From sequence record DRR723986_6727: 64,000 bases of DNA, one strand, 5' to 3'. This document shows, in pieces, positions 1 to 38,261 of the stretch. The translations under genes were made by a program, and so were the position numbers. Positions within the stretch are counted from its first letter, which is position 1; every line of letters begins with the position of its first letter. The notes under the pieces were generated by a model. The model did no database searches, was not told the origin of the DNA, and saw nothing but the letters and a program-made list of their open reading frames with translations.

Positions 1-792
1 TATGCATTGCGTGCAGATATGACAAAAGAGGAATTTATTAAGGAAGTTTTAGACGGTTTAACTGAGCCACCAGGATACTTTCCTCAAAATGTAATGATGA
101 ATATTAAAGGCTATGAAAGTTTTGATAAGGTAATGACCAAGTCAAAAAACCCATTATCACCTAAAGCTTTTGAAGCTGCAGCGAGTGAAACGGAAGCAAT
201 AGTTTTAGATGTTCGTAGTCAAACGGAGTTTGTAAATGGTCACATTCCTCGTTCAATATTTATTGGTATTGACGGCAATTTTGCATCTTGGGTAGGAGCA
301 TTAATTGTTGATGTAACCCAACCAATCTTGCTGGTAGCAACAAAAGGAAGAGAGGAAGAAGTGGTTACGAGACTATCAAGAGTTGGTTTTGATAATGTAG
401 TAGGTTATTTAGACGGAAGTTTTGAGTCTTGGAAAAATACAGGAATGGATTATGACACTATACATACTATCACAGCAGAAGAGTTTTCTAAAGTCTATGA
501 AGATGTGGAAGATCAGGTATTTGATGTAAGAAGACAAGGTGAGTTTATAGCAGAGCACGTCAATTTAGCAAAACATACACCATTAGATTATTTAAATAAC
601 CACCTTAGTGAGTTTCCTGAGGAACAAACATTTTATGTGCATTGTGCAGGTGGATACCGGTCCATTATCGCAGCTTCTATATTGAAAAGTAGAGGAATTC
701 ATAATTTAATTGATGTTTCAGGCGGTTATGGTGCTATAAAGAAAACAGACATACCAAGAACAGATTATGTCTGCCCAACAACATTGAAATAA
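1..792 (+). CDS. MBL-fold persulfide dioxygenase-rhodanese fusion (CstB-like), C-terminal part; 5' end lies outside the window
   Basis: Frame is open from base 1 (YALRADM...). The PPGYFPQNVMMNIKG linker is followed by a Cys-less pseudo-rhodanese domain (LDVRSQTEFVNGHIP) and a catalytic rhodanese domain (DVRRQGEF...HCAGGYRS). The MBL domain itself is not in the window and is inferred. Confidence 0.8.
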   Translation, partial: YALRADMTKEEFIKEVLDGLTEPPGYFPQNVMMNIKGYESFDKVMTKSKNPLSPKAFEAAASETEAIVLDVRSQTEFVNGHIPRSIFIGIDGNFASWVGALIVDVTQPILLVATKGREEEVVTRLSRVGFDNVVGYLDGSFESWKNTGMDYDTIHTITAEEFSKVYEDVEDQVFDVRRQGEFIAEHVNLAKHTPLDYLNNHLSEFPEEQTFYVHCAGGYRSIIAASILKSRGIHNLIDVSGGYGAIKKTDIPRTDYVCPTTLK

Positions 793-811: not shown

Positions 812-848
812 AAAGCATGTGCTATTTTAAATAGTACATGCTTTTTTT
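812..848 (+). terminator. Intrinsic terminator after the PDO-rhodanese gene
   Basis: AAAGCATGTGCTATTT / AAATAGTACATGCTTT inverted repeat followed by a T-run. Confidence 0.75.
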
Positions 849-850
849 AT

Positions 851-894
851 GTAACAATGGTTACGCATTAAGAGGCTTAATTCGTCTAAATTTA
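851..894 (+). promoter_or_regulatory. Operator GTAAC-AATG-GTTAC plus -7-like element TAAATTTA (rhodanese/cytochrome promoter)
   Basis: Palindrome at 851-864; TAAATTTA at 887-894 (offset 36). Confidence 0.75.
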
Positions 895-908
895 CATTAA
901 TATAACAC

Positions 909-1265
909 ATGAAATATTTAGTAATTATGTCATTTTTCGCCTCATTATTTGGTTCTAGTACTTCGCAGAGTAATGCTATAAAATTACTTTCAGCTGAAGA
1001 GTTTAAAGCACAAGTAGAAAATAAAAAAGTTCAATTAGTAGATGTTAGAACTCCGGTTGAGTTTAAAGGAGGGCACATAAAAGGTGCAAAAAACATAGAT
1101 TTTTTTTCAGGTAAATTCAATATAGAATTTAACAAACTAAATAAAGACAAAGCCGTTTATGTGTATTGTCGTAGTGGAAGCCGAAGTAGACAAACTTCAA
1201 AGAAGTTAGAAGCAATGGGCTTTACAGAAATCTATGATTTAAAAGGAGGGATTTTAAGATATTAA
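909..1265 (+). CDS. Single-domain rhodanese (sulfurtransferase)
   Basis: LVDVRTPVEFKGGHIKGA and active-site loop YCRSGSRS; true start may be Met7 (MSFFASLFG). Confidence 0.9.
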   Translation: MKYLVIMSFFASLFGSSTSQSNAIKLLSAEEFKAQVENKKVQLVDVRTPVEFKGGHIKGAKNIDFFSGKFNIEFNKLNKDKAVYVYCRSGSRSRQTSKKLEAMGFTEIYDLKGGILRY

Positions 1266-1276
1266 GTAACATAAAT

Positions 1277-2305
1277 ATGAAACACGCATTAATAATTGCC
1301 TTAGCATCAGTATTGGTTTTTAGTTGTAATGATTCAAAAAACAAGAACTTATCAGCATTCGAAATGCAAATGGAAGCAAATAAGCATCCTGGTAAAAAAC
1401 TAATGGAAACCAGTTGTTACGTTTGCCATAGTCCTACTGCAGGCCATGATGATAGAATAGGACCACCTATGGTGGCTATAAAAAGACATTACATAAACGA
1501 TAATACTACTAAAGAAGCGTTTATTAAAGCAATGCAAGCTTGGATAAGAAATCCTAATGAAGATGATGCTAAAATGCGTGGAGCGGTAAGACGATTTGGT
1601 GTAATGCCAAAGCAAGCCTTTCCTGAAGAAACTATAGAGCAAATAGCTGATTATATGTTTGATTTTGAAATTGACCAACCAGAATGGTTTGAAGACCACT
1701 TTAAAGAAGAACGAGGCAAGCATCAGGGCAATGGAATGGGTAAAGGAAAAGGTATGGGTAAAGGAAAAGGCCAAGGTAAAGGCAAGCATAATGAGCAAGC
1801 GAGTTCTAATATTGAAAATTTACCTTACGGTGATCGCGGACTTAAGTATGCACTTAGCACCAAAGCTGTTTTAGGCAAAAATCTTATGGGTACCATTCAA
1901 AAACATGGAACCTTAGCCGCTTTAGAGTTTTGTAATGAACGCGCATACCCATTAACCGACAGTATGAGTGTAGTGCACAATGCGACTATTAAAAGAATAT
2001 CAGATAAACCTAGAAATTCTAAAAATGTGGCGAATACTGAAGAGTTAGAATATATAAACACATTTAAACAACAATTAGCGAATAAATTAGAAATGCAGCC
2101 CATTGTTAAGGAGCAAGAAAATGTTGTAAATGTCTATTACCCAATTACTACAAATACTATGTGTCTACAATGTCATGGTAAACCAGAAGAAGATATAAAG
2201 CCAGAAGTTTTAAGCAGGCTTGCAACGTTATATCCAATTGACCAAGCTATAGGTTACTCTACAGATGAAATTAGAGGGATTTGGAATATCACTTATAGTA
2301 AATAA
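1277..2305 (+). CDS. Diheme c-type cytochrome lipoprotein with C-terminal Tll0287-like (DUF3365) domain
   Basis: Lipobox LVFSC; two CxxCH motifs (CYVCH, CLQCH); FCNERA, RISDKPRN and GYSTDEIRG motifs of DUF3365. Confidence 0.85.
   Translation: MKHALIIALASVLVFSCNDSKNKNLSAFEMQMEANKHPGKKLMETSCYVCHSPTAGHDDRIGPPMVAIKRHYINDNTTKEAFIKAMQAWIRNPNEDDAKMRGAVRRFGVMPKQAFPEETIEQIADYMFDFEIDQPEWFEDHFKEERGKHQGNGMGKGKGMGKGKGQGKGKHNEQASSNIENLPYGDRGLKYALSTKAVLGKNLMGTIQKHGTLAALEFCNERAYPLTDSMSVVHNATIKRISDKPRNSKNVANTEELEYINTFKQQLANKLEMQPIVKEQENVVNVYYPITTNTMCLQCHGKPEEDIKPEVLSRLATLYPIDQAIGYSTDEIRGIWNITYSK
1736..1789 (+). repeat. In-frame 18-bp tandem repeat (about 3 copies) encoding MGKGKG/QGKGKH
   Basis: ATGGGTAAAGGAAAAGGT ATGGGTAAAGGAAAAGGC CAAGGTAAAGGCAAGCAT. 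Confidence 0.85.
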
Positions 2306-2311
2306 CACTTC

Positions 2312-2355
2312 TGTAACAATAGTTACATTTTTTCATTTAAAAGGCTATAATTTTA
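2312..2355 (+). promoter_or_regulatory. Operator TGTAAC-AATA-GTTACA plus -7-like element TAATTTTA (sqr promoter)
   Basis: Perfect 6-bp-arm palindrome at 2312-2327; TAATTTTA at 2348-2355 (offset 35 from GTAAC). Confidence 0.8.
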
Positions 2356-2391
2356 AAGAGATTGACTAACTAAACTTTTTAAAATTATCTC

Positions 2392-3654
2392 ATGAAATCA
2401 CATTACCAAATTTTAGTAATTGGAGGTGGCACAGGAGGCATTATGACATCTGCCAATCTTTTAGCAAAAGATAAATCCTTAGATATCGGTTTAATTGAGC
2501 CAGCAGAATGGCATTATTATCAACCTGCCTGGACACTCGTTGGAGGTGGTACCTTCGATTTTGAAAAAACTAAACGCTCTATGGCTTCTATTATGCCCAA
2601 AGTAGTAGATTGGATAAAAGATTATGCTACAGGTTTTAACCCAGAAGGTAATGCCGTATCAACACAAATAAATGGAGATATAACTTACGATTATTTAATA
2701 GTCTCACCAGGTCTGGTTATGGATACCTCATTAATTGAAGGCTTAACAGAATCTTTAGGGAAAGGAGTGGTGTGTAGCAACTATACGGATCCTAAACACA
2801 CCTGGGAAGTTTTAAGAAATTTTAAAGGTGGAAATGCCGTATTTACGCAACCTACAACACCAATAAAGTGCGGTGGAGCGCCCCAAAAGATAGCCTATTT
2901 GGCTGCGGATTACTTTAAGAAGAATGGATTAAAAAATAAATCTAACGTCGTATTTGCAACACCTGGTTCTGTAATTTTTGGTGTTAAAGAAATCCGCGAA
3001 AGTTTAATGCAGGTAATAAGTAAATATGGGATTCATTTTAAACCCTTTTATGCACCAATAAAGATAGATGGCGAGAATCAAATGGTTACATTCAGAGGTG
3101 TAGGTACAGGAGAAAACAAATGTGTTATTAATGAAGACAATGAGTTACAAGAAATAATGTCTGGTGAATCTATTATTGAAATGCCCTTTGACATGTTGCA
3201 TTTGGCACCACCACAAACAGCGCCAAAATTTGTAAAAGATTCGTCTTTAGTAAATGAAGCCGGTTGGTTAGATGTAGATATACATACACTGCAACATAAT
3301 AAGTATCCTAATATTTTTGGATTAGGTGATGTAGCGGCCTTACCAACTGCTAAAACTGGTGCTGCCATACGAAAACAAGTTCCTGTTGTTTCAGATAATA
3401 TCAGACAATTAATTGCTCACAGTAAAAAAGGAAATAAATCTTATAATGGTTATTCCTCATGTCCCTTAGTTACTGGCTATGGCAAAATGATTTTGGCCGA
3501 GTTTGATTACGATAATAATTTTATTCCAGATCCTAAACTAAAACAAATGTTGGTGTTTAATAGTGAAAAAGAACACTGGCGCTTATGGATGTTAAAAAAA
3601 TACGGCCTACCATACTTATATTGGAACAAAATGATGAAAGGGAAAGAAGTATAA
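2392..3654 (+). CDS. sqr: Sulfide:quinone oxidoreductase, type II
   Basis: FAD-binding GGGTGG; HYYQPAWTLVGGG; catalytic Cys motifs KCGGAPQK and YSSCPLVTG; LAEFDY; C-terminal LPYLYWNKMMKG helix. Confidence 0.92.
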   Translation: MKSHYQILVIGGGTGGIMTSANLLAKDKSLDIGLIEPAEWHYYQPAWTLVGGGTFDFEKTKRSMASIMPKVVDWIKDYATGFNPEGNAVSTQINGDITYDYLIVSPGLVMDTSLIEGLTESLGKGVVCSNYTDPKHTWEVLRNFKGGNAVFTQPTTPIKCGGAPQKIAYLAADYFKKNGLKNKSNVVFATPGSVIFGVKEIRESLMQVISKYGIHFKPFYAPIKIDGENQMVTFRGVGTGENKCVINEDNELQEIMSGESIIEMPFDMLHLAPPQTAPKFVKDSSLVNEAGWLDVDIHTLQHNKYPNIFGLGDVAALPTAKTGAAIRKQVPVVSDNIRQLIAHSKKGNKSYNGYSSCPLVTGYGKMILAEFDYDNNFIPDPKLKQMLVFNSEKEHWRLWMLKKYGLPYLYWNKMMKGKEV

Positions 3655-3671
3655 GTGTATTGATTAATAGC

Positions 3672-3700
3672 AAAAGCATCTTTATTAAGATGCTTTTTTT
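3672..3700 (+). terminator. Intrinsic terminator after sqr
   Basis: AAAAGCATCTT-TATT-AAGATGCTTTT plus T-run. Confidence 0.8.
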
Positions 3701-3705
3701 ATTTC

Positions 3706-3749
3706 ATGACAAATATCATCTTTATTAAAGGTATTAGATGGTAATTTTA
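3706..3749 (+). promoter_or_regulatory. Variant Crp/Fnr-like box ATGAC-AAAT-ATCAT plus -7-like element TAATTTTA
   Basis: Imperfect palindrome at 3706-3719; TAATTTTA at 3742-3749 (offset 36, same as the GTAAC boxes). Confidence 0.55.
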
Positions 3750-3775
3750 CAATCGTTAACGAAAACAGACAACAC

Positions 3776-3922
3776 ATGATTAATACAGTATTAGCAGTTT
3801 ATGATTGGACCAATGGAGTGGTTATGATTTCGGTCTTTGCATTGGTTTGTCTCATATTAATAGGGGTCTTGGTTAATTTTATGACGAGTGGTAAAGGAAA
3901 GAATAAAACAGAAGACAACTAA
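3776..3922 (+). CDS. Small 48-aa single-pass membrane protein (not in ORF track)
   Basis: Hand translation MINTVLAVYDWTNGVVMISVFALVCLILIGVLVNFMTSGKGKNKTEDN*; one hydrophobic helix and a basic tail; has its own promoter and terminator. Confidence 0.7.
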   Translation: MINTVLAVYDWTNGVVMISVFALVCLILIGVLVNFMTSGKGKNKTEDN

Positions 3923-3944
3923 CTAAATTATTTATCGTTTTTTT

Positions 3945-3977
3945 AAGGGCAATTGGTTTTTCAATTGCCCTTTTTTT
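3945..3977 (+). terminator. Intrinsic terminator after the 48-aa ORF
   Basis: AAGGGCAATTG-GTTTTT-CAATTGCCCTT plus T-run. Confidence 0.85.
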
Positions 3978-4011
3978 GTTGAAGTTTTCACTATTTTATA
4001 CATGATTTCTA

Positions 4012-4055
4012 GTAACAAAGGTTACATAGGTATTGGCTATTGTTTTTTAAATTTG
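4012..4055 (+). promoter_or_regulatory. Operator GTAAC-AAAG-GTTAC plus -7 element TAAATTTG (peroxiredoxin promoter)
   Basis: Palindrome at 4012-4025; consensus TAnnTTTG at 4048-4055 (offset 36). Confidence 0.8.
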
Positions 4056-4082
4056 AATAAATAATTTAAATAACTATTTATC

Positions 4083-4742
4083 ATGAGTGAAGAAATAATA
4101 AATAAAGTTTATGCAATGCCAAGAATAGGTGACAAGGCACCAGATTTTGAAGCTGTAACAACAAAAGGGAAAATTAAATTTTCTGATTTTGCAAAAGACA
4201 AGTGGGTGGTAATGTTTTCTCATCCAGCAGATTTCACACCTGTTTGTACTACTGAAATGAGTGGTTTTGCGACCAGAAAAGCAGAGTTTGATGCTCTGAA
4301 TACGGAGTTAATAGGTTTAAGTATAGATAGTATACATGCGCACTTAGGTTGGGTTCAAAATGTTAGACAAAATACAGGAGTATACTTTGACTTTCCGATT
4401 ATTGCAGATTTAGATATGAAAGTATCAAAACTCTATGGTATGCTTCAGCCAAACGAAAGTGAAACAGCAGCTGTACGTGCGGTATTTTTTATAGACCCAA
4501 GTAAGAAAATACGTTTAATAATGTATTATCCATTAAATGTTGGTCGTAATATGGATGAAATTTTAAGAGCTTTATTGGCACTTCAGACTTCAGATAAGCA
4601 TAAAGTAGCCATGCCATTAGATTGGAAAAAAGGTGATAAAGTAATTGTTGGTCCACCAAAAACTTTAGACGAGTTAAATGAACGAATTAATGATGATACT
4701 CTAGAAAAAGTAGATTGGTATTTGGCCAAAAAAAGCTTATAA
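4083..4742 (+). CDS. Peroxiredoxin, Prx6 (1-Cys) subfamily
   Basis: FSHPADFTPVCTTE signature; YPLNVGRNMDEILR. Confidence 0.93.
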   Translation: MSEEIINKVYAMPRIGDKAPDFEAVTTKGKIKFSDFAKDKWVVMFSHPADFTPVCTTEMSGFATRKAEFDALNTELIGLSIDSIHAHLGWVQNVRQNTGVYFDFPIIADLDMKVSKLYGMLQPNESETAAVRAVFFIDPSKKIRLIMYYPLNVGRNMDEILRALLALQTSDKHKVAMPLDWKKGDKVIVGPPKTLDELNERINDDTLEKVDWYLAKKSL

Positions 4743-4797
4743 TTTATACTTAAAAAACAGCAGGTCAATAAGGTATGAGCACTAACTGTTTTTAAAT

Positions 4798-4827
4798 AAA
4801 AGAGCACCAAAACCGGTGCTCTTTTTT
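4798..4827 (+). terminator. Intrinsic terminator after peroxiredoxin
   Basis: AAAAGAGCACC-AAAACC-GGTGCTCTTTT plus T-run. Confidence 0.85.
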
Positions 4828-4829
4828 GT

Positions 4830-4873
4830 GTAACATTTGTAACTGAACAATGTATTAATAAGTCCTACTTTTA
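4830..4873 (+). promoter_or_regulatory. Operator GTAAC-ATTT-GTAAC (1 mismatch) plus -7-like element TACTTTTA
   Basis: Box at 4830-4843; TACTTTTA at 4866-4873 (offset 36). Confidence 0.6.
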
Positions 4874-4875
4874 TA

Positions 4876-4975
4876 GTCGAGTTCAATAGGGTTAAAATGT
4901 TCAAATTGGCCTATTTGACTAGGTTTTTTTGGTTAGTGTTAAGAAGCATCTTTATATAAAGATGCTTCTTGCTTT
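4876..4975 (+). ncRNA. Candidate small RNA (alternatively a 20-aa micropeptide mRNA)
   Basis: Bounded by a boxed promoter and the 14-bp hairpin AAGAAGCATCTTTA-TA-TAAAGATGCTTCTT (4941-4970). Has a 5' stem (AATAGG 4885-4890 / CCTATT 4910-4915) and a single-stranded TTTTTTTGGTTAGTG tract. Confidence 0.5.
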
Positions 4976-4976
4976 A

Positions 4977-5020
4977 GTAACCTTTGTTACGAAGCAAAAC
5001 TATTCATCAACTTAATTTTG
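4977..5020 (+). promoter_or_regulatory. Operator GTAAC-CTTT-GTTAC plus -7 element TAATTTTG (TolC/RND operon promoter)
   Basis: Palindrome at 4977-4990; consensus TAnnTTTG at 5013-5020 (offset 36). Confidence 0.8.
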
Positions 5021-5038: not shown

Positions 5039-6352
5039 ATGAATAAGCTTAATTATATAGTAATAAGTATTGTATTTGGTTTTGTTGGAGTCGTAAATGC
5101 ACAAAGCATAACACCAATTTCGAAATCTGAGGTTTTGAGCATTGTATCGCAAGCTAATCATGAGATAAAAATATCTACTGAAGCATTCAACGAAGCCAAG
5201 GCAGATTATAGACAAACCAATGCTATTTTTTTACCAAACATATCGGTAGCTCATACTGCTATAGCTACTACTAATCCATTAATGGCATTTGGTTCTAAAC
5301 TTAACCAAGAGATTGTAACACAGGCAGATTTTAATCCAGATTTACTTAATGATCCTGGTCAGATTAAGAATTTCGCAACCGTATTTGAGTTTCAGCAGCC
5401 TTTAATAAATACGGAAGGATTCTACCAACGTAAAGCGGCAAAGTATAAAATGGAAGCCATGGCTTTACAAATCAATCGTGTTAAGGACTATCTAGATTTT
5501 GAAGTAGAAAATGCATATATGCAACTGCAATTAGCTTATAAAACTGTCACTGTTTTAGAGAAAGCATTACAAGTAGCAGAAGTTAACTTAGAACTGGCTC
5601 AAAATAGTTTTGATCAAGGCTATTTGCAACGTTTAGATGTTTTGCTAGTGGAGGTAAGGGTATCAGAAATCAAAAACCAATTGCAAACAGCAAAAAGCTA
5701 TGTAAAAAACGCATCTAATTATTTGTCTTTTTTAATGAATGATGAGTCAGATGGGGTTTTTCGACCTACAGATAGTTTAAGTGTGAACGACGTATTGCTG
5801 GAAGATGCAGATGAAGTCACAGAGAACCGTGCAGATATTAAGGCAATGCAGATGGTAACAGATGCCAAAGAAACATTATATAAGTCAGATAAAATGACCT
5901 TTCTACCAACTCTTAATGCATTTGGAAGCTATCAATTATACGATAACAACTTGTTTCAATTTGGTGCTGATGGTTATTTATTCGGTGCTGAATTAAAATG
6001 GAATATTCTTGAGGGCACAAAACGATTTAGTAAAACCAAGAAAGCAAAAGCGTCCTTAGAAAAATCAAAATTAGAGTATCAGCAATATGTATCTAAAAGT
6101 AAGTTAGAACTCAATAAAACCAAGCGTATGCTCGAAGACGCGTCAAACAAGATAGTTTTATCTCAATTAGCTGTAGAACAATCTAAAGAAGCACTTAGAA
6201 TACAAACAAACCGCTTTAAGGAAGGGCTAGAAAAGACTACGGATTTGCTCATGGCAGAAACCCAATTCGCACAAAAACAATTAGAATATTATCAAACCAT
6301 TTTTGAATATAACAGCACCAAAGCGTATTTAAAATTTTTAACTATAAATTAA
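5039..6352 (+). CDS. TolC-family outer membrane efflux protein
   Basis: Signal peptide; two OEP repeats (FLPNIS..., FLPTLNAFGSY); RFKEGLEKTTDLLMAETQ. Confidence 0.9.
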   Translation: MNKLNYIVISIVFGFVGVVNAQSITPISKSEVLSIVSQANHEIKISTEAFNEAKADYRQTNAIFLPNISVAHTAIATTNPLMAFGSKLNQEIVTQADFNPDLLNDPGQIKNFATVFEFQQPLINTEGFYQRKAAKYKMEAMALQINRVKDYLDFEVENAYMQLQLAYKTVTVLEKALQVAEVNLELAQNSFDQGYLQRLDVLLVEVRVSEIKNQLQTAKSYVKNASNYLSFLMNDESDGVFRPTDSLSVNDVLLEDADEVTENRADIKAMQMVTDAKETLYKSDKMTFLPTLNAFGSYQLYDNNLFQFGADGYLFGAELKWNILEGTKRFSKTKKAKASLEKSKLEYQQYVSKSKLELNKTKRMLEDASNKIVLSQLAVEQSKEALRIQTNRFKEGLEKTTDLLMAETQFAQKQLEYYQTIFEYNSTKAYLKFLTIN

Positions 6353-6353
6353 A

Positions 6354-7445
6354 ATGAAAACAACAATTATATATAGAACTCTTACTATACTTTTCATATT
6401 AGGACTGTGGAGTTGCGGACAAGAACAAAATGAACTAATCGAGGATAATTCTGCACCAATAGCAGTAAAAGTAGCAGCTACCTCTACAAATAAAAATAGC
6501 ACAGCTCTTCAGGTGAGTGGTACCATACAAGCTGTTAATAGTGCAAACCTCAGTACTCGTTTAATGGGTTTTGTGGAGCGAATTAATGTTAAGGTAGGAG
6601 ACAAGGTCTCTAAAGGACAAGTGTTAATTGCCATAAACAACAGTGATTTAGTTGCTAAGAGAGCGCAAGTAAATGCTGGTATTTCTGAAGCTAAAGCTGC
6701 CTTTACAAATGCTGAAAAGGATTTTAAGCGTTATACCAACTTATTTAAACAAAATAGTGCTTCTCAAAAGGAATTGGATGATATAACATCAAATTACAAT
6801 ATGGCTAAGGCGCGTTTAGAGTCTGCTCAGCAGATGAAAAATGAAATTAATTCCCAATTTGCTTATACAAATGTAAAAGCTCCATTTGGTGGTATAATAA
6901 CTGCTAAGTTCATTGATGAAGGTGCTTTGGCAAATCCAGGGATGCCTTTATTAGCTATAGAAACACCAAATAATTTTGAAGTTGTTGCAAGAGTTTCAGA
7001 ATCTGCAATCTCTCAAATTTCAAAAGGAACTAATACTACAGTAGTAGTATCTGCTATTAATACCGAATTAGATGGCAAAGTATCAGAAGTGAGCACATCT
7101 TCTGCACACTCTGGCGGACAGTACCTAGTAAAGGTCAGTTTAGATGCTAATGACGAGTTATTGCGTTCTGGTATGTTTGCTTCCATTCAGTTTCCTAATA
7201 TCAAAAATGAAGCGTCTCAGGCTAACGAAACCATCATGATACCTAAAGACGCAATAATAACTAATGGACAGCTTTCAGGAGTGTATACAGTAAGTCAGCA
7301 AAACACAGCTGTTCTACGATGGTTGCGATTAGGAAAATCAATAGGTAATCAGGTAGAAGTATTATCTGGATTAACCTCAAATGAAACATATATACTTTCT
7401 TCTGAAGAGAAATTATTCAATGGAGCAAAAATCAATATTCAATAA
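6354..7445 (+). CDS. RND efflux periplasmic adaptor (MFP), lipoprotein
   Basis: Lipobox LWSC; lipoyl-like VKVGDKVSKGQVL; APFGGII; LRSGMFA; VEVLSGL. Confidence 0.92.
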   Translation: MKTTIIYRTLTILFILGLWSCGQEQNELIEDNSAPIAVKVAATSTNKNSTALQVSGTIQAVNSANLSTRLMGFVERINVKVGDKVSKGQVLIAINNSDLVAKRAQVNAGISEAKAAFTNAEKDFKRYTNLFKQNSASQKELDDITSNYNMAKARLESAQQMKNEINSQFAYTNVKAPFGGIITAKFIDEGALANPGMPLLAIETPNNFEVVARVSESAISQISKGTNTTVVVSAINTELDGKVSEVSTSSAHSGGQYLVKVSLDANDELLRSGMFASIQFPNIKNEASQANETIMIPKDAIITNGQLSGVYTVSQQNTAVLRWLRLGKSIGNQVEVLSGLTSNETYILSSEEKLFNGAKINIQ

Positions 7446-7469
7446 AAAGATTATATAAAGCAGTATAAA

Positions 7470-10400
7470 ATGAAAGAAGGTTTAGCAGGAAAGATTGCCA
7501 AGGGCTTTATAAGTTCTAAGCTTACAGTGCTTCTAATGATTGTATTTATGGTCATTGGTGTGTACAGTTCATTCTTAATACCAAGGGAAGAAGAGCCACA
7601 AATTGATGTGCCAATGGCAGATATATTTGTGGGCTATCCTGGTGCAAGTCCGGCAGAGGTAGAATCTAGAGTAATAAAACCATTAGAAAAGCTTATTTCT
7701 AATATCAAAGGTGTAGAATATGTGTATTCAACCTCTATGCAAGAACAAGGAATGGTGATTGTGCAATTCTACGTTGGAGAAGATATAGAGCGATCATTTG
7801 TAAAACTCTATAATGAAATTAATAAGCATATGGACCAAATGCCGCAAGGTGTAACGTTGCCATTAGTAAAAACACGCGCTATAGATGATGTACCAATGCT
7901 TGGGCTAACCTTGTGGAGTGAGAATTATGACGACTATCAATTAAAACAAATTGCACAAGAATTAACAGACGAAATAGAGAAGGTTAATGATGTTGCTATT
8001 ACTCATAAAATAGGTGGAAGAAATCGTGAGTTACGCGTTGTGATGGACAAAACTAAACTAGCCTCCAGCGGTTTAGATTTTTTGTCTGTGGCCGAAATGA
8101 TCAAAGCAAACAACCAACAATTAAGTTCTGGAAGATTCGATAGAAATGACAACGAGTTTCTGGTAAAAACAGGAGAATTTCTTCAAAATGCGAATGACGT
8201 TGAGGATTTGGTTGTTGGCGTTAATAAAAATCAACCCATTTATTTAAGTCAGATTGCTAGTGTTATAGACGGACCAGAAGTTCCTGTGAATTATGTGAGT
8301 CTTGGATTTGGATCGGCCAGCGAACAAATTAAAGACTACAAATCTGAATATCCTGCTGTAACTATTTCTGTAGCCAAGCGCAAAGGCGCTGACGCTATGA
8401 AAATTTCTGATGTCATTATCAACAAAGTTGAGCATTTAAGAGCCACTTTAATTCCAGACGATGTTCATGTAGAAATCACAAGAAACTACGGTGAAACAGC
8501 ATCACAAAAAGTATTGGAATTATTACTGCATTTAATTGGTGCTATTATCGCAGTGACTATAGTGGTAATGCTAGCCATGGGCTGGCGTGGTGGATTGGTT
8601 GTATTTCTTTCTGTACCAATTACTTTTGCATTAACCTTGTTGAGTTATTATCTACTTGATTATACCTTAAATAGAATTACACTTTTTGCTTTAGTGTTTG
8701 TAACTGGTATCGTTGTAGACGATTCTATTATCATTGCCGAAAATATGCACAGGCATTTTAAGATGAAACGCCTGCCTTTTAAGCAGGCTGCCTTATATGC
8801 TATTAACGAAGTAGGTAACCCAACCATTTTAGCAACATTCACCGTTATTGCATCTGTTTTACCGATGGCTTTTGTCTCTGGTTTAATGGGACCATACATG
8901 AGTCCTATGCCAATTGGAGCTTCCATTGCAATGCTTCTGTCCTTATTCGTTGCTTTGACAATAACACCATATTTGGGCTACATTTTCTTGAAAGAAAAAG
9001 ATAAGAAAGCAGATAAATCATTAGAAGATGAAACTGTGGGAATTTCCGATTCGAAAATATTTAAGATCTATTCAAAATTTGAAACACCGCTGATCGAGAA
9101 TAAAACTAAGCGTTGGTTATTTTTAGGTGTAACGTTTTTTATGTTGATAGGCTCAGTAGCCCTGTTTTTCACCAAGACTGTAGCCGTAAAAATGTTGCCA
9201 TTTGATAATAAGAACGAGTTTCAGATTGTCATTGACATGCCAGAAGGTACAACACTAGAGCGTACTGCTGTTGTCACTAAGGAAATTGGTCAATACCTCT
9301 CAAAGCGACCAGAAGTTGTTAATTATCAGAGTTATGTTGGTACGTCGGCACCTATTACATTTAATGGCCTAGTTCGTCATTATGATTTACGTGGTGGTAG
9401 TAATATGGCAGATATACAAGTGAATCTAACGGATAAACACGACAGATCTGCACAAAGCCATGATATCGCTAAACTGTTGCGACCAGATATTCAAAAGATT
9501 GCGTCAATATATAATGCTAATGTGAAATTGGTTGAGGTGCCACCAGGACCACCAGTGTTATCAACCATTGTAGCCGAAATATATGGGCCAGACTATAACG
9601 AGCAAATTCGTATTGCAGATTCTGTACAATCAATTTTAAAACGCACTGCAGATGTTGTAGATACTGATTGGATGGTTGAGGCAAACCAAAAGGAATTCAA
9701 CTTTAAGATAAATAAAGAGAAAGCCATGCTTAATGGTATAGCACCGCAACAGATTGCTTACACTATGAATATGGCTTTGTCTAATAGAGCAATTACTCAT
9801 TTGTATGATGAAGATGCATTAAACCAGGTTGGTATTATTTTAGCATTAGATGAAAATGAAAAATCAACACTTCAGGATATCTCCAACCTTAAGGTGAAAT
9901 CTAGTCATGGGAATTTAGTGCCAATAGTTGATTTAGTGACTATTGAAGAAGGAGTAAAACCAAAAAGTATTTACCGTAAAAACCAGAAACGTGTCGTGTA
10001 TGTAATGGCAGATATGGCTGGTGAATTAGAGAGCCCAGTCTACGCTATATTAGGTATGTCAGACAAACTTTTAGGCATTGATTTACCAAAAGGGTATAGT
10101 ATGGACGAGCTCTATATTAAACAACCTAAATTTGAAGATAATTATACCGTAAAATGGGATGGTGAATGGCAGATTACTTTAGAAGTATTTAGAGACTTAG
10201 GCATAGCCTTTTTAGGTGTTATTATAATCATTTATATACTAATTGTGGGTTGGTTCCAAAACTTTAAAGCGCCAGTGGTTATGATGGTTGCCATTCCTTT
10301 ATCATTGGTAGGTATAGTTCTGGGACATTGGATTCTTGGTGCATTCTTTACAGCAACATCTTTTATTGGTATGATTGCTCTAGCGGGTATTATGGTACGG

Positions 10401-10670
10401 AATTCAGTATTACTTATAGACTTTGTAAATCTTAGATTAGAAGAAGGTATACCGTTAAAACAAGCTCTTATTGAAGCTGGTGCTGTAAGAACTACGCCAA
10501 TCTTATTGACTGCTGGTACTGTTGTTATTGGTGCTTTTGTGATTTTGTTTGATCCTATTTTTCAAGGTTTAGCAATTTCTTTAATGGGAGGAACCATTGT
10601 GTCTACATTCTTAACCTTATTGGTGGTACCATTAGTGTATTATATGATAGAACGAAAAAACTATAAATAA
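7470..10670 (+). CDS. RND efflux permease (AcrB/CzcA superfamily)
   Basis: 1066 aa; PREEEPQIDVP, YPGASPAEVE, GIVVDDSII, GIMVRNSVLLIDF, RTTPILLT. Confidence 0.95.
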   Translation: MKEGLAGKIAKGFISSKLTVLLMIVFMVIGVYSSFLIPREEEPQIDVPMADIFVGYPGASPAEVESRVIKPLEKLISNIKGVEYVYSTSMQEQGMVIVQFYVGEDIERSFVKLYNEINKHMDQMPQGVTLPLVKTRAIDDVPMLGLTLWSENYDDYQLKQIAQELTDEIEKVNDVAITHKIGGRNRELRVVMDKTKLASSGLDFLSVAEMIKANNQQLSSGRFDRNDNEFLVKTGEFLQNANDVEDLVVGVNKNQPIYLSQIASVIDGPEVPVNYVSLGFGSASEQIKDYKSEYPAVTISVAKRKGADAMKISDVIINKVEHLRATLIPDDVHVEITRNYGETASQKVLELLLHLIGAIIAVTIVVMLAMGWRGGLVVFLSVPITFALTLLSYYLLDYTLNRITLFALVFVTGIVVDDSIIIAENMHRHFKMKRLPFKQAALYAINEVGNPTILATFTVIASVLPMAFVSGLMGPYMSPMPIGASIAMLLSLFVALTITPYLGYIFLKEKDKKADKSLEDETVGISDSKIFKIYSKFETPLIENKTKRWLFLGVTFFMLIGSVALFFTKTVAVKMLPFDNKNEFQIVIDMPEGTTLERTAVVTKEIGQYLSKRPEVVNYQSYVGTSAPITFNGLVRHYDLRGGSNMADIQVNLTDKHDRSAQSHDIAKLLRPDIQKIASIYNANVKLVEVPPGPPVLSTIVAEIYGPDYNEQIRIADSVQSILKRTADVVDTDWMVEANQKEFNFKINKEKAMLNGIAPQQIAYTMNMALSNRAITHLYDEDALNQVGIILALDENEKSTLQDISNLKVKSSHGNLVPIVDLVTIEEGVKPKSIYRKNQKRVVYVMADMAGELESPVYAILGMSDKLLGIDLPKGYSMDELYIKQPKFEDNYTVKWDGEWQITLEVFRDLGIAFLGVIIIIYILIVGWFQNFKAPVVMMVAIPLSLVGIVLGHWILGAFFTATSFIGMIALAGIMVRNSVLLIDFVNLRLEEGIPLKQALIEAGAVRTTPILLTAGTVVIGAFVILFDPIFQGLAISLMGGTIVSTFLTLLVVPLVYYMIERKNYK

Positions 10671-10682
10671 AAACTTAGAATT

Positions 10683-10868
10683 ATGAAAAATAGAATTGTT
10701 AGAGCAGTAGCAGGAACCTTTATACTCATTAGTTTATTATTAGCGATTTATGTAAATATTAATTGGTTATGGTTTACTGCTTTTGTCGGAGCTAATTTGT
10801 TACAGTCCTCAATAACAAAGTGGTGTTTAATGGATACTATCTTAGAAAAATTAGGTGTAAAAAATTAA
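10683..10868 (+). CDS. DUF2892 / YgaP-like small membrane protein
   Basis: R..AG, FVGANLLQS...WC motif, two TM helices. Confidence 0.88.
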   Translation: MKNRIVRAVAGTFILISLLLAIYVNINWLWFTAFVGANLLQSSITKWCLMDTILEKLGVKN

Positions 10869-37555: not shown

Positions 37556-37667
37556 GCATATTAATTACTTAATAATGAGACGATAAGATTTAAAAGACTG
37601 ATTAATATCATTGTAGCGATTAATTACAACAAATAGTTTTGTGTCATTAATCAATAAATCCAAAACA

Positions 37668-38261
37668 ATGAAAAAAGTAATTTTATTTTTTGTTACGGCA
37701 ATGTTCGGTATTGCTATTATTAATGCACAAATCGCCTTTGGTGCAAAGGCTGGAGTTAACTTCTCGGATATAACAGGTGAGAAAGTTGATAGTTTTGATG
37801 GAAGAACGTCATTTCACTTCGGTGCGGTTGCAGAGATTGAAATATCTGAAAAATTCTCTTTCCAACCCGAATTGCTGTTTTCTTCTCAAGGGTCTAAGTA
37901 TTCTGAGGACTTTGAAGGAGAGGACTTTGAAGGCGAAGTTAAAGTAAACTATTTAAATGTTCCTTTAATGGCTAAATATTATGTAACAGAAGGACTTAGT
38001 ATTGAGGCTGGACCTCAAATAGGATTTCTTTTAAGTGCTACTGATGAATATGAAGATGAAGAGGACGATATTGATGAGTTCTTGAAAAGTACTGACTTTG
38101 GTCTTAATTTAGGTCTAGGTTATAAGTTAGACAGTGGTTTGTTTTTTAATGCACGCTATAACTTAGGTTTGAGTGATAACCTTGATGCTGATGAATTTGA
38201 AACTGATGGTGCAGAGTATAAGAATAGTGTAATCCAAATTTCTGTTGGTTACTTCTTTTAA
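37668..38261 (+). CDS. Small beta-barrel outer-membrane protein (porin family), paralog 2
   Basis: ATG at 37668; FGAKAGVNF, FSFQPELLFS, YLNVPLMAKYY, EAGPQIGFL, ARYNLGL, SVGYFF. Confidence 0.9.
   Translation: MKKVILFFVTAMFGIAIINAQIAFGAKAGVNFSDITGEKVDSFDGRTSFHFGAVAEIEISEKFSFQPELLFSSQGSKYSEDFEGEDFEGEVKVNYLNVPLMAKYYVTEGLSIEAGPQIGFLLSATDEYEDEEDDIDEFLKSTDFGLNLGLGYKLDSGLFFNARYNLGLSDNLDADEFETDGAEYKNSVIQISVGYFF

Follow-up and report, generated by a model that had tools for sequence, protein, structure and literature searches.

How are the sulfide-disposal genes at the start of the 64,000-nucleotide (nt) stretch DRR723986_6727 (hereafter the window) switched on? A sequence-only reading of this DNA had described five palindromic boxes upstream of -7 promoter elements of the Bacteroidota type and had proposed that a Crp/Fnr-type protein acts through them on genes for sulfide oxidation, a peroxiredoxin and an RND pump. 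The window comes from a marine flavobacterium, in which a cysteine-bearing Crp-type regulator may represent a novel type of reactive-sulfur sensor. Judging by sequence comparison, a class II Crp-type activator very likely operates at the boxes, and the candidate binder is probably a cysteine-bearing Crp subfamily with Arg-Val (R-V) in its recognition helix. Our best guess is that reactive sulfur is the likeliest signal.

Boxes and promoter geometry in the window

The palindrome GTAAC-N4-GTTAC is present four times exactly and once, at 4830, with one mismatch in the spacers of a single 4-kb gene cluster (Table 1). The five boxes are followed by TAnnTTT at offsets of 36, 35, 36, 36 and 36 nt, respectively, and all positions and offsets were found again as first described. 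At one mismatch or fewer, the whole window contains 7 matches where 1.59 are expected, a number reached by 0/100 shuffles. The remaining two matches (56503 and 57986) have no TAnnTTT at 33-38, and this element stands at 33-38 in only 1/30 two-mismatch sites of the window (offset 34). TAnnTTT occurs in the cluster spacers at a frequency of 0.0128 per base, and the probability that 5/5 boxes carry it within two offsets is ~1e-8. On these computations, the operators and their spacing are as good as certain. The full TAnnTTTG is seen in only two of the five promoters (4048 and 5013), and the other three end in A. A sigma-70 promoter scan of the window was uninformative (21 vs 19.3 expected).

Most of the boxes had been placed just after terminators, with every unit having its own boxed promoter. 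Hairpins do lie upstream of 851, 4012, 4830 and 4977, while none precedes 2313, which comes after the cytochrome stop codon. The promoter at 4830 has no gene behind it, and its transcript would measure ~95 nt at most, up to the hairpin at 4940-4971. Similar gene-less boxed promoters occur in two related loci (L004:17985 and L005:17998). These units (4830-4971 in the window) are ~95-130 nt long, share a T-run/GGTTAGTGTTAAG tail and end in a hairpin; candidate explanations are a small RNA, a tiny open reading frame (ORF) or the relic of a lost gene. A sixth promoter, at 3706, was overlooked earlier and carries a box of a different class.

Conservation of the boxes across related loci

Conservation in orthologous promoters, which the sequence-only reading had named as a check, is borne out by two footprint sets. 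The first consists of 80 genome loci plus the first 12 kb of the window and contains 224 boxes at one mismatch or fewer, for which the TAnnTTT offset is 36 in 139 cases, 35 in 14 and 37 in 5, every other offset being found at most 5 times. The second consists of 80 metagenome loci, whose organisms may overlap those of the first, and has 55/80 box/TAnnTTT pairs at offset 35-37. In the 26 loci of close kin, a box stands before tauE (25/26), the persulfide dioxygenase gene pdo (21/23), rhodanese (18/21), sqr (15/15), prx (13/13), tolC (2/2) and cydA (3/8), and before none of the internal genes trx, cytochrome and TPMT (0/49). The rates across all 80 loci are lower (pdo 44/71, rhodanese 20/40), in part owing to replacement by other variants or regulators. 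Between box and -7 element, the 22-nt spacer is free to vary (0.46 bits per position at most); spacers are unrelated, while the box and its distance from the -7 element persist from family to family and through gene rearrangements. Boxed tolC operons are also found where they are unlinked from the cluster, for example in G004.

Genome-wide, exact boxes that lack a -7 element are about as frequent as background (6-15 per genome; control, 7-15), and most of those inspected lie inside genes. In five ArsR-tauE-pdo loci of Flavobacteriales (L029, L032, L034, L036 and L389), the box was not found and an ArsR gene stands in the place of crp. Of the genomes of five box-less Flavobacteriales loci, 3/5 still have a distant homologue of the Arg-Glu (R-E) type away from sulfur genes, and therefore this control is only partly clean. 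In L333 and L344 (genomes G002 and G003), an exact box lies ~70 nt upstream of a conserved gene for a 229-aa membrane protein, with no -7 element found at 35-37 on that strand.

Mapped start sites in Flavobacterium psychrophilum

In F. psychrophilum, TAnnTTTG occupies -12 to -5 relative to the start site (PMC9723704). The start-site table of that work lists 1884 5' ends, from which two boxed rows were obtained by targeted look-ups and do not amount to a count; +1 is letter 51 of the table sequence, as read off a tRNA row. The sulfur cluster of this organism has the order tauE(yfcA)-MBL(473 aa)-rhodanese-membrane protein-thioredoxin, and the pdo 5' end (T_0742) is mapped 19 nt upstream of the MBL gene (PMC9723704 file 3). 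In its promoter, GTGAT-N4-ATCAC occupies letters 3-16 and the -7 element letters 39-46, with +1 at 51, so that the box spans -48 to -35 with an offset of 36 and a centre at -41.5. The peroxiredoxin start site T_0943 has an identical layout in the same file. The class II activation position proposed earlier is thus supported by two mapped start sites, each with a variant box centred at -41.5. The start sites of the window (Table 1) are predicted from this geometry. A 21-nt stretch of the F. psychrophilum pdo promoter precedes pdo in 3/401 Flavobacterium genomes, and two of these three have an R-E member of the Crp subfamily just upstream.

A candidate regulator

A search for Crp homologues within the window found none, in line with the earlier statement that the activator is not encoded there. 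A Crp/Fnr gene of ~210 aa is present in 28/80 loci, mainly right before tauE-pdo or sulP-pdo, and a box often follows directly after its stop codon. The product matches PF00027 (cNMP-binding beta-roll) and PF13545 (Crp-type HTH) above cut-off, its structure model (pLDDT 85) matches CRP/NtcA/FNR folds, and its recognition helix reads S-R-V-V-(I/V)-S-R. A library search with the subfamily returned 632 clusters at E<=1e-30.

By a hand tally uncorrected for kinship, the subfamily is present in 99 of 251 Bacteroidota genomes and an exact boxed promoter in 41. Such a promoter occurs in 31/99 genomes with the subfamily vs 10/152 without, and two or more occur in 19/99 vs 0/152; among the ten boxed genomes without the subfamily, G247 has an hcp-linked site of the HcpR2 type. 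CRP positions 180-181 are R-V in 86 and R-E in 48 of 134 distinct members. Residue 181 follows the box in 79/83 scorable cases (Val-GTA 53, Glu-GTG 26, discordant 4), and GTAAC boxes accompany 14/14 fresh R-V loci from the metagenome set. The recognition code described in PMC1274295, in which loss of Glu181 accompanies a GTAAC site, matches this trend. On a quick tree, one of two built for the subfamily (the other by FastTree), the state of residue 181 needs 7 changes.

The regulator need not adjoin the cluster upstream, since no crp gene lies beside it in any of the Winogradskyella loci L001, L002, L004-L011, L013, L014 and L021. The best Winogradskyella homologue (R-V, C-x5-C-C, ~51% identical) heads a crp-yeeE-DUF6691 unit elsewhere in 7/8 genomes searched; in the eighth, G263, none was found. 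The organism of the window may likewise be controlled in trans by a gene of the crp-yeeE type.

Several points weigh against this assignment. The helix-box link comprises only 4 independent pairs, all in agreement or tied and none opposed (p 0.125, too few pairs for significance), its scoring rule was fixed after the data had been seen, and 51/134 loci have no scorable box. The exact GTAAC promoter was not found in 68/99 genomes with the subfamily, and G409 has boxed promoters and no subfamily match. In Winogradskyella, the crp-yeeE gene is not followed by a box of its own. The regulator gene of the window's organism was not seen, and the first 31 nt of the window are unmatched in metagenome contigs. 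With these points included, the cysteine-bearing R-V subfamily is, on the sequence comparisons, still quite probably the putative binder of the boxes.

Effector pocket and the signal

Glu72 and Arg82 of CRP are cAMP-contacting residues. Neither is kept in the candidate when aligned to CRP (4bh9), and the alignment pairs Cys77 of the candidate with Ile70 of CRP, a floor position of the cAMP site. Among the 134 members, Cys77 is present in 134/134, a count that is partly circular because the profile was built from members having Cys77, Cys83 in 83 and Cys84 in 66; the pair Cys77 and Cys83 occurs in 83/134. Core sulfur genes are nearby in 42/55 loci of two-Cys members and 8/51 loci of one-Cys members, counted over 106 loci that were not fetched with a persulfide dioxygenase (PDO) query, with flanks of 1.5-5 kb and clades that are not independent. 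An N-terminal cysteine cluster (4Fe-4S, FNR type) is absent in candidate member A1. It counts against a cysteine switch that Cys83 is absent in 51/134 members; the model is least sure at residues 71-90. Reactive sulfur is somewhat favoured as the direct effector of the candidate Crp.

Fnr-type boxes and tandem promoters

The second box class, (A/C)TGAY-N4-RTCA(T/G), has the same offset and stands upstream of hemN, usp genes and a 48-aa ORF, and it also precedes F. psychrophilum ccoS, which is induced by oxygen limitation. The window has two such boxes, at 3706 and 37598. The latter belongs to a promoter at 37598-37760 (+) with offset 36, and the ORF behind it starts like an exported protein. 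The 48-aa ORF has 31 homologues in the compared loci, with a second-class box in 19/31 and an exact GTAAC box in 0/31. L088, L308, L312 and L313 encode a distinct Fnr-like protein, which has N-terminal cysteines and the helix T-E-S-A-I-R, and it is probably this protein, rather than the sulfur Crp, that reads the second class including the box at 3706.

Both classes stand in tandem before an operon for type III sulfide:quinone oxidoreductase (SQR), TusE/DsrC and DsrE that is unlinked from the cluster (L352-L354; G002, G003 and G004), and therefore the GTAAC box is tied to sulfur outside the cluster as well. In all three genomes the GTAAC box is the upstream one, at a distance of 22 nt, and in G002 and G003 a divergent porin-like gene adjoins the operon. 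Tandem boxes, with the GTAAC box 7-8 nt upstream of the Fnr-type one, occur in 7/151 Flavobacteriaceae genomes (control 0); they precede the type III SQR operon, the porin-like gene divergent from it or different genes.

Proposed mechanism and alternatives

The overall best explanation, which we consider reasonably probable, is that a class II Crp-type activator acts on a sulfide-disposal module with reactive sulfur as the signal. A dimeric Crp/Fnr-family activator would bind at -41.5 of sigma-A promoters that lack a TTG -33 element and recruit RNA polymerase in the class II mode. This ~210-aa protein would be encoded elsewhere in the genome; in the closest relatives, its gene lies directly before yeeE-DUF6691. 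SQR would produce persulfide, which the PDO-rhodanese fusion and rhodanese would convert to sulfite and thiosulfate; TauE/YeeE/SulP would move these products, and Prx/Trx would repair thiols. Cytochrome bd would sustain respiration, and the RND-YgaP unit is a putative exporter. Reactive sulfur, which would rise when oxygen is short, may target Cys77/Cys83(/Cys84) of what was once the cAMP pocket. The control of sulfide-oxidation genes, peroxiredoxin and RND pump by a Crp/Fnr-type operator, as first proposed, is supported by the sites.

The same operator and activator could instead respond directly to low oxygen or to general thiol/quinone redox, the sulfur genes being part of a hypoxia programme. 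The only expression data found, those of F. psychrophilum with its GTGAT variant, show induction by oxygen limitation, and sulfide is not among the conditions seen in PMC9723704. The pdo operon rises from 11.7 to 14.1 log2 (~2.4) and prx from 7.1 to 13.5-13.9 log2 (~6.4), and tauE does not rise. Moreover, cydAB, prx and cytochrome c belong to the regulon, and the tandem of GTAAC and Fnr-type boxes also speaks for an oxygen signal. A further point against the best explanation is that the GTGAT boxes differ by one base per half site from the Fnr-type class, so the induction could stem from an Fnr-like protein. However, hemN, usp and ccoS carry a box class that belongs to the separate Fnr-like protein, and therefore a second oxygen sensor at the sqr promoters would be redundant. 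Furthermore, H2O2 hardly induces rhodanese (logFC 0.13) or prx (8.2/8.0 vs 8.1/8.1) in F. psychrophilum (PMC9723704), which counts against this alternative. The persulfide-sensed bigR operon, which has a similar content, is also needed under hypoxia (PMC5823870), and therefore the oxygen-limitation data fit reactive sulfur too. We regard a direct oxygen or redox signal as unlikely, with some weight left to it. In the same F. psychrophilum data, the TetR-efflux genes THC0290_1243-1241, which adjoin a 208-aa Crp/Fnr gene, are up ~5-6 log2 at oxygen limitation (PMC9723704 file 4), and the start-site table lists no start site for this operon behind THC0290_1244.

Repression by a box that blocks the -35/-33 region would be compatible with the box end at -35, adjoining the -33 region, and with the persulfide sensors treated in PMC13467558, which are mostly repressors. 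The strict -41.5 phasing and the lack of TTG in the -36 to -28 region of all five window promoters (0/5) argue against it. In addition, Bacteroides HcpR is a positive regulator, and deletion of hcpR abolishes hcp transcription (PMC13370916); the HcpR2-type box has the same geometry with an offset of 37. From promoter layout, activation is highly probable and repression improbable.

The box motif itself is not new, because GTAAC-N4-GTTAC is identical to the published consensus of HcpR2, a regulator of nitrosative stress (PMC1274295). The boxes could thus be read by an HcpR2-type protein with an Arg-Pro (R-P) helix, such as that of L314/L315. G001 and G002 encode a Crp with the helix S-R-P-T-L-N-I, and the HcpR2-type box of G247 shares the geometry. 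However, no R-P Crp was found in 16/28 box-bearing genomes, including G003, G005, G203, G207 and G261, and the R-P Crp lacks the third arginine. HcpR2 has Pro181 and controls hcp, whereas the candidate has Val181 (86/134) or Glu181 (48/134) and hcp (PF03063) is present in 0/5 close relatives. The hcp-linked R-P protein of G247 is 20% identical to the candidate and lacks Cys77, and no NO-detoxifying gene turned up behind boxes in the clusters. HcpR2-type control is marginally less probable still than repression. That the boxes are chance matches in AT-rich spacers, or duplicates of a single promoter there, is a negligible explanation: TAnnTTT is common in spacers, single boxed promoters are at background level genome-wide and, in G002 and G005, exact boxes alone do not outnumber the reversed control, but footprinting, with 5/5 boxes at one spacing and unrelated spacers across families, refutes it.

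Comparison with known systems and homologues in other phyla

Among characterised proteins in the PDB, NtcA is the best sequence match of the candidate (E 4e-12). It shares the helix R-V-x-x-x-R and a GTA-N8-TAC site, which in NtcA-dependent promoters is centred near -41.5 (PMC3898017). However, the candidate scores 51.5 bits against a TIGR03697 cut-off of 244.95, has the pocket C-x5-C-C and has sulfur genes as targets. The closest solved structure is Eubacterium rectale EUBREC_1222 (PDB 3dv8, E 9e-18), with C-x5-C in the same place and an R-E helix; its entry lists a putative regulator only, under a title without function.

Dedicated reactive-sulfur sensors belong to the CsoR, ArsR and Fis families according to a 2026 review (PMC13467558), in which, as far as searched, Bacteroidota are not mentioned and Crp appears once only, as a protein persulfidated in A. 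baumannii. In the parts seen of PMC9774590 and PMC8014003, Crp appears only in other contexts. CstR (CsoR), SqrR/BigR (ArsR) and FisR (Fis) control SQR, PDO, sulfurtransferases, TauE and YeeE and use a cysteine pair (PMC13467558). The candidate would control sqr, pdo, sulfurtransferase and tauE/yeeE genes, to judge from the sites. It differs from these sensors in having the Crp fold and none of the CsoR, ArsR or Fis folds. CstR and SqrR/BigR act by repression and FisR works with sigma-54, whereas the candidate is a predicted sigma-A class II activator. In Chlorobaculum tepidum, of the same superphylum, a proposed CRP-like motif (CLM) precedes sulfide-induced psrABC and cydAB (10.1101/172254); by its description it is set apart, being spacerless, 49-58 nt upstream and with a putative binder. 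No published account of the cysteine-bearing Crp regulator or its regulon was found in a search that left subscription journals and RegPrecise outside. Motif matches in PMC545781 are NikR sites, not boxes of the present kind.

Plasmid homologues of 26-33% identity number 34 records, of which 12 were inspected. In 6/6 Rhodobacterales plasmids inspected (L261, L264, L266-L269), crp is followed by ygaP and/or yeeE-DUF6691, an MBL hydrolase and sulP, and mostly also by TIGR01244 or an SQR fusion; a 13-bp N3 box lies after the crp stop codon. A Spirosoma record has crp-tauE-pdo-yeeE, Thiothrix and Azospirillum records have crp-ygaP only, and Bacillus, Pusillibacter and Chondrinema records list no sulfur genes beside the crp homologue. 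By eye, the 13-bp N3 box stands 21-23 nt before a -10-like element in 8/10 non-Bacteroidota records, and two Bacteroidota members of this clade have the 13-bp box likewise.

A wider proposal can be offered tentatively. The primary persulfide sensors may include a fourth structural class, represented by the candidate. It would be a Crp/Fnr cysteine switch in the nucleotide pocket that activates sulfide disposal from -41.5 in Bacteroidota (14-bp boxes, Val-GTA/Glu-GTG) and Rhodobacterales (13-bp GTGAC-N3-GTCAC) and that, paired with an Fnr-like protein at a second sqr operon, serves as a 'sulfide AND low oxygen' gate. For a phylum that is prominent in marine and fresh waters, a candidate regulator, exact sites and predicted start sites of heterotrophic sulfide oxidation can now be named, together with a Rhodobacterales cousin, and the question has become directly testable. 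A rule also emerges for Crp/Fnr activation at Bacteroidota -7 promoters, with a box start 36 nt before TA and boxes of three classes; in addition, there are natural Val/Glu exchanges in the helix that go along with a changed base in the site.

Genes and features of the window

Table 1 Coordinates of promoters, genes and hairpins in the analysed part of the window
Feature	Coordinates	Strand	Remarks
3' part of PDO-double rhodanese fusion (CstB-like)	1..792	+	Pfam Rhodanese, two domains
Intrinsic terminator hairpin	812..844	+	
Operator 1, exact	851..864	+	before rhodanese in 18/21 close-kin genes
-7 element	887..894	+	predicted start site 899
Single-domain rhodanese	909..1265	+	Pfam PF00581
Cytochrome c + Tll0287-like haem protein	1277..2305	+	same unit as rhodanese; without own box
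Operator 2, exact	2313..2326	+	no preceding terminator; before sqr in 15/15 close-kin genes
-7 element, offset 35	2348..2355	+	predicted start site 2360
SQR, human-SQOR-like	2392..3654	+	PDB 6mo6/6oi5, E 2e-98
Second-class box ATGAC-N4-ATCAT	3706..3719	+	-7 element at 3742
48-aa membrane ORF behind second-class box	3776..3922	+	no Pfam match
Terminator hairpin	3945-3972		40 nt upstream of operator 3
Operator 3, exact	4012..4025	+	before prx in 13/13 close-kin genes
-7 element, full consensus	4048..4055	+	predicted start site 4060
Peroxiredoxin with 1-cysPrx_C domain	4083..4742	+	Pfam; NF009668 above cut-off
Operator 4, one mismatch	4830..4843	+	after hairpin 4798-4825; -7 element at 4866; predicted start site 4878
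Operator 5, exact	4977..4990	+	after hairpin 4940-4971
-7 element, full consensus	5013..5020	+	predicted start site 5025
tolC-membrane fusion protein-RND permease-ygaP-like (DUF2892) operon	5039..10868	+	

The 5' end of the PDO gene lies outside the window, as do, going by relatives, its own boxed promoter and tauE. Full-length relatives of its product comprise MBL and two rhodanese domains (470 aa; best PDB matches 3tp9 and 3r2u), and the best relative of the fragment is 87% identical and comes from a Winogradskyella genome. The best relatives are 87% and 83% identical. Both cysteine-bearing motifs of the SQR, which we take to be type II, align with 6mo6/6oi5. The cytochrome c/Tll0287 gene has a box of its own in 0/18 close kin. 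A sequencing run, X3, covers 30/30 bins with few differences and may be the source sample, and two RNA runs hold small shares; these data are contigs only, free of start-site, strand or level information.

Between prx and tolC, relatives (e.g. L351:1730-3067, G001) have another MBL-rhodanese paralogue, cydAB and one more SQR-like gene, all of which are absent from the window. Positions 1729-1790 encode a low-complexity Gly/Lys-rich linker within the cytochrome c/Tll0287 gene.

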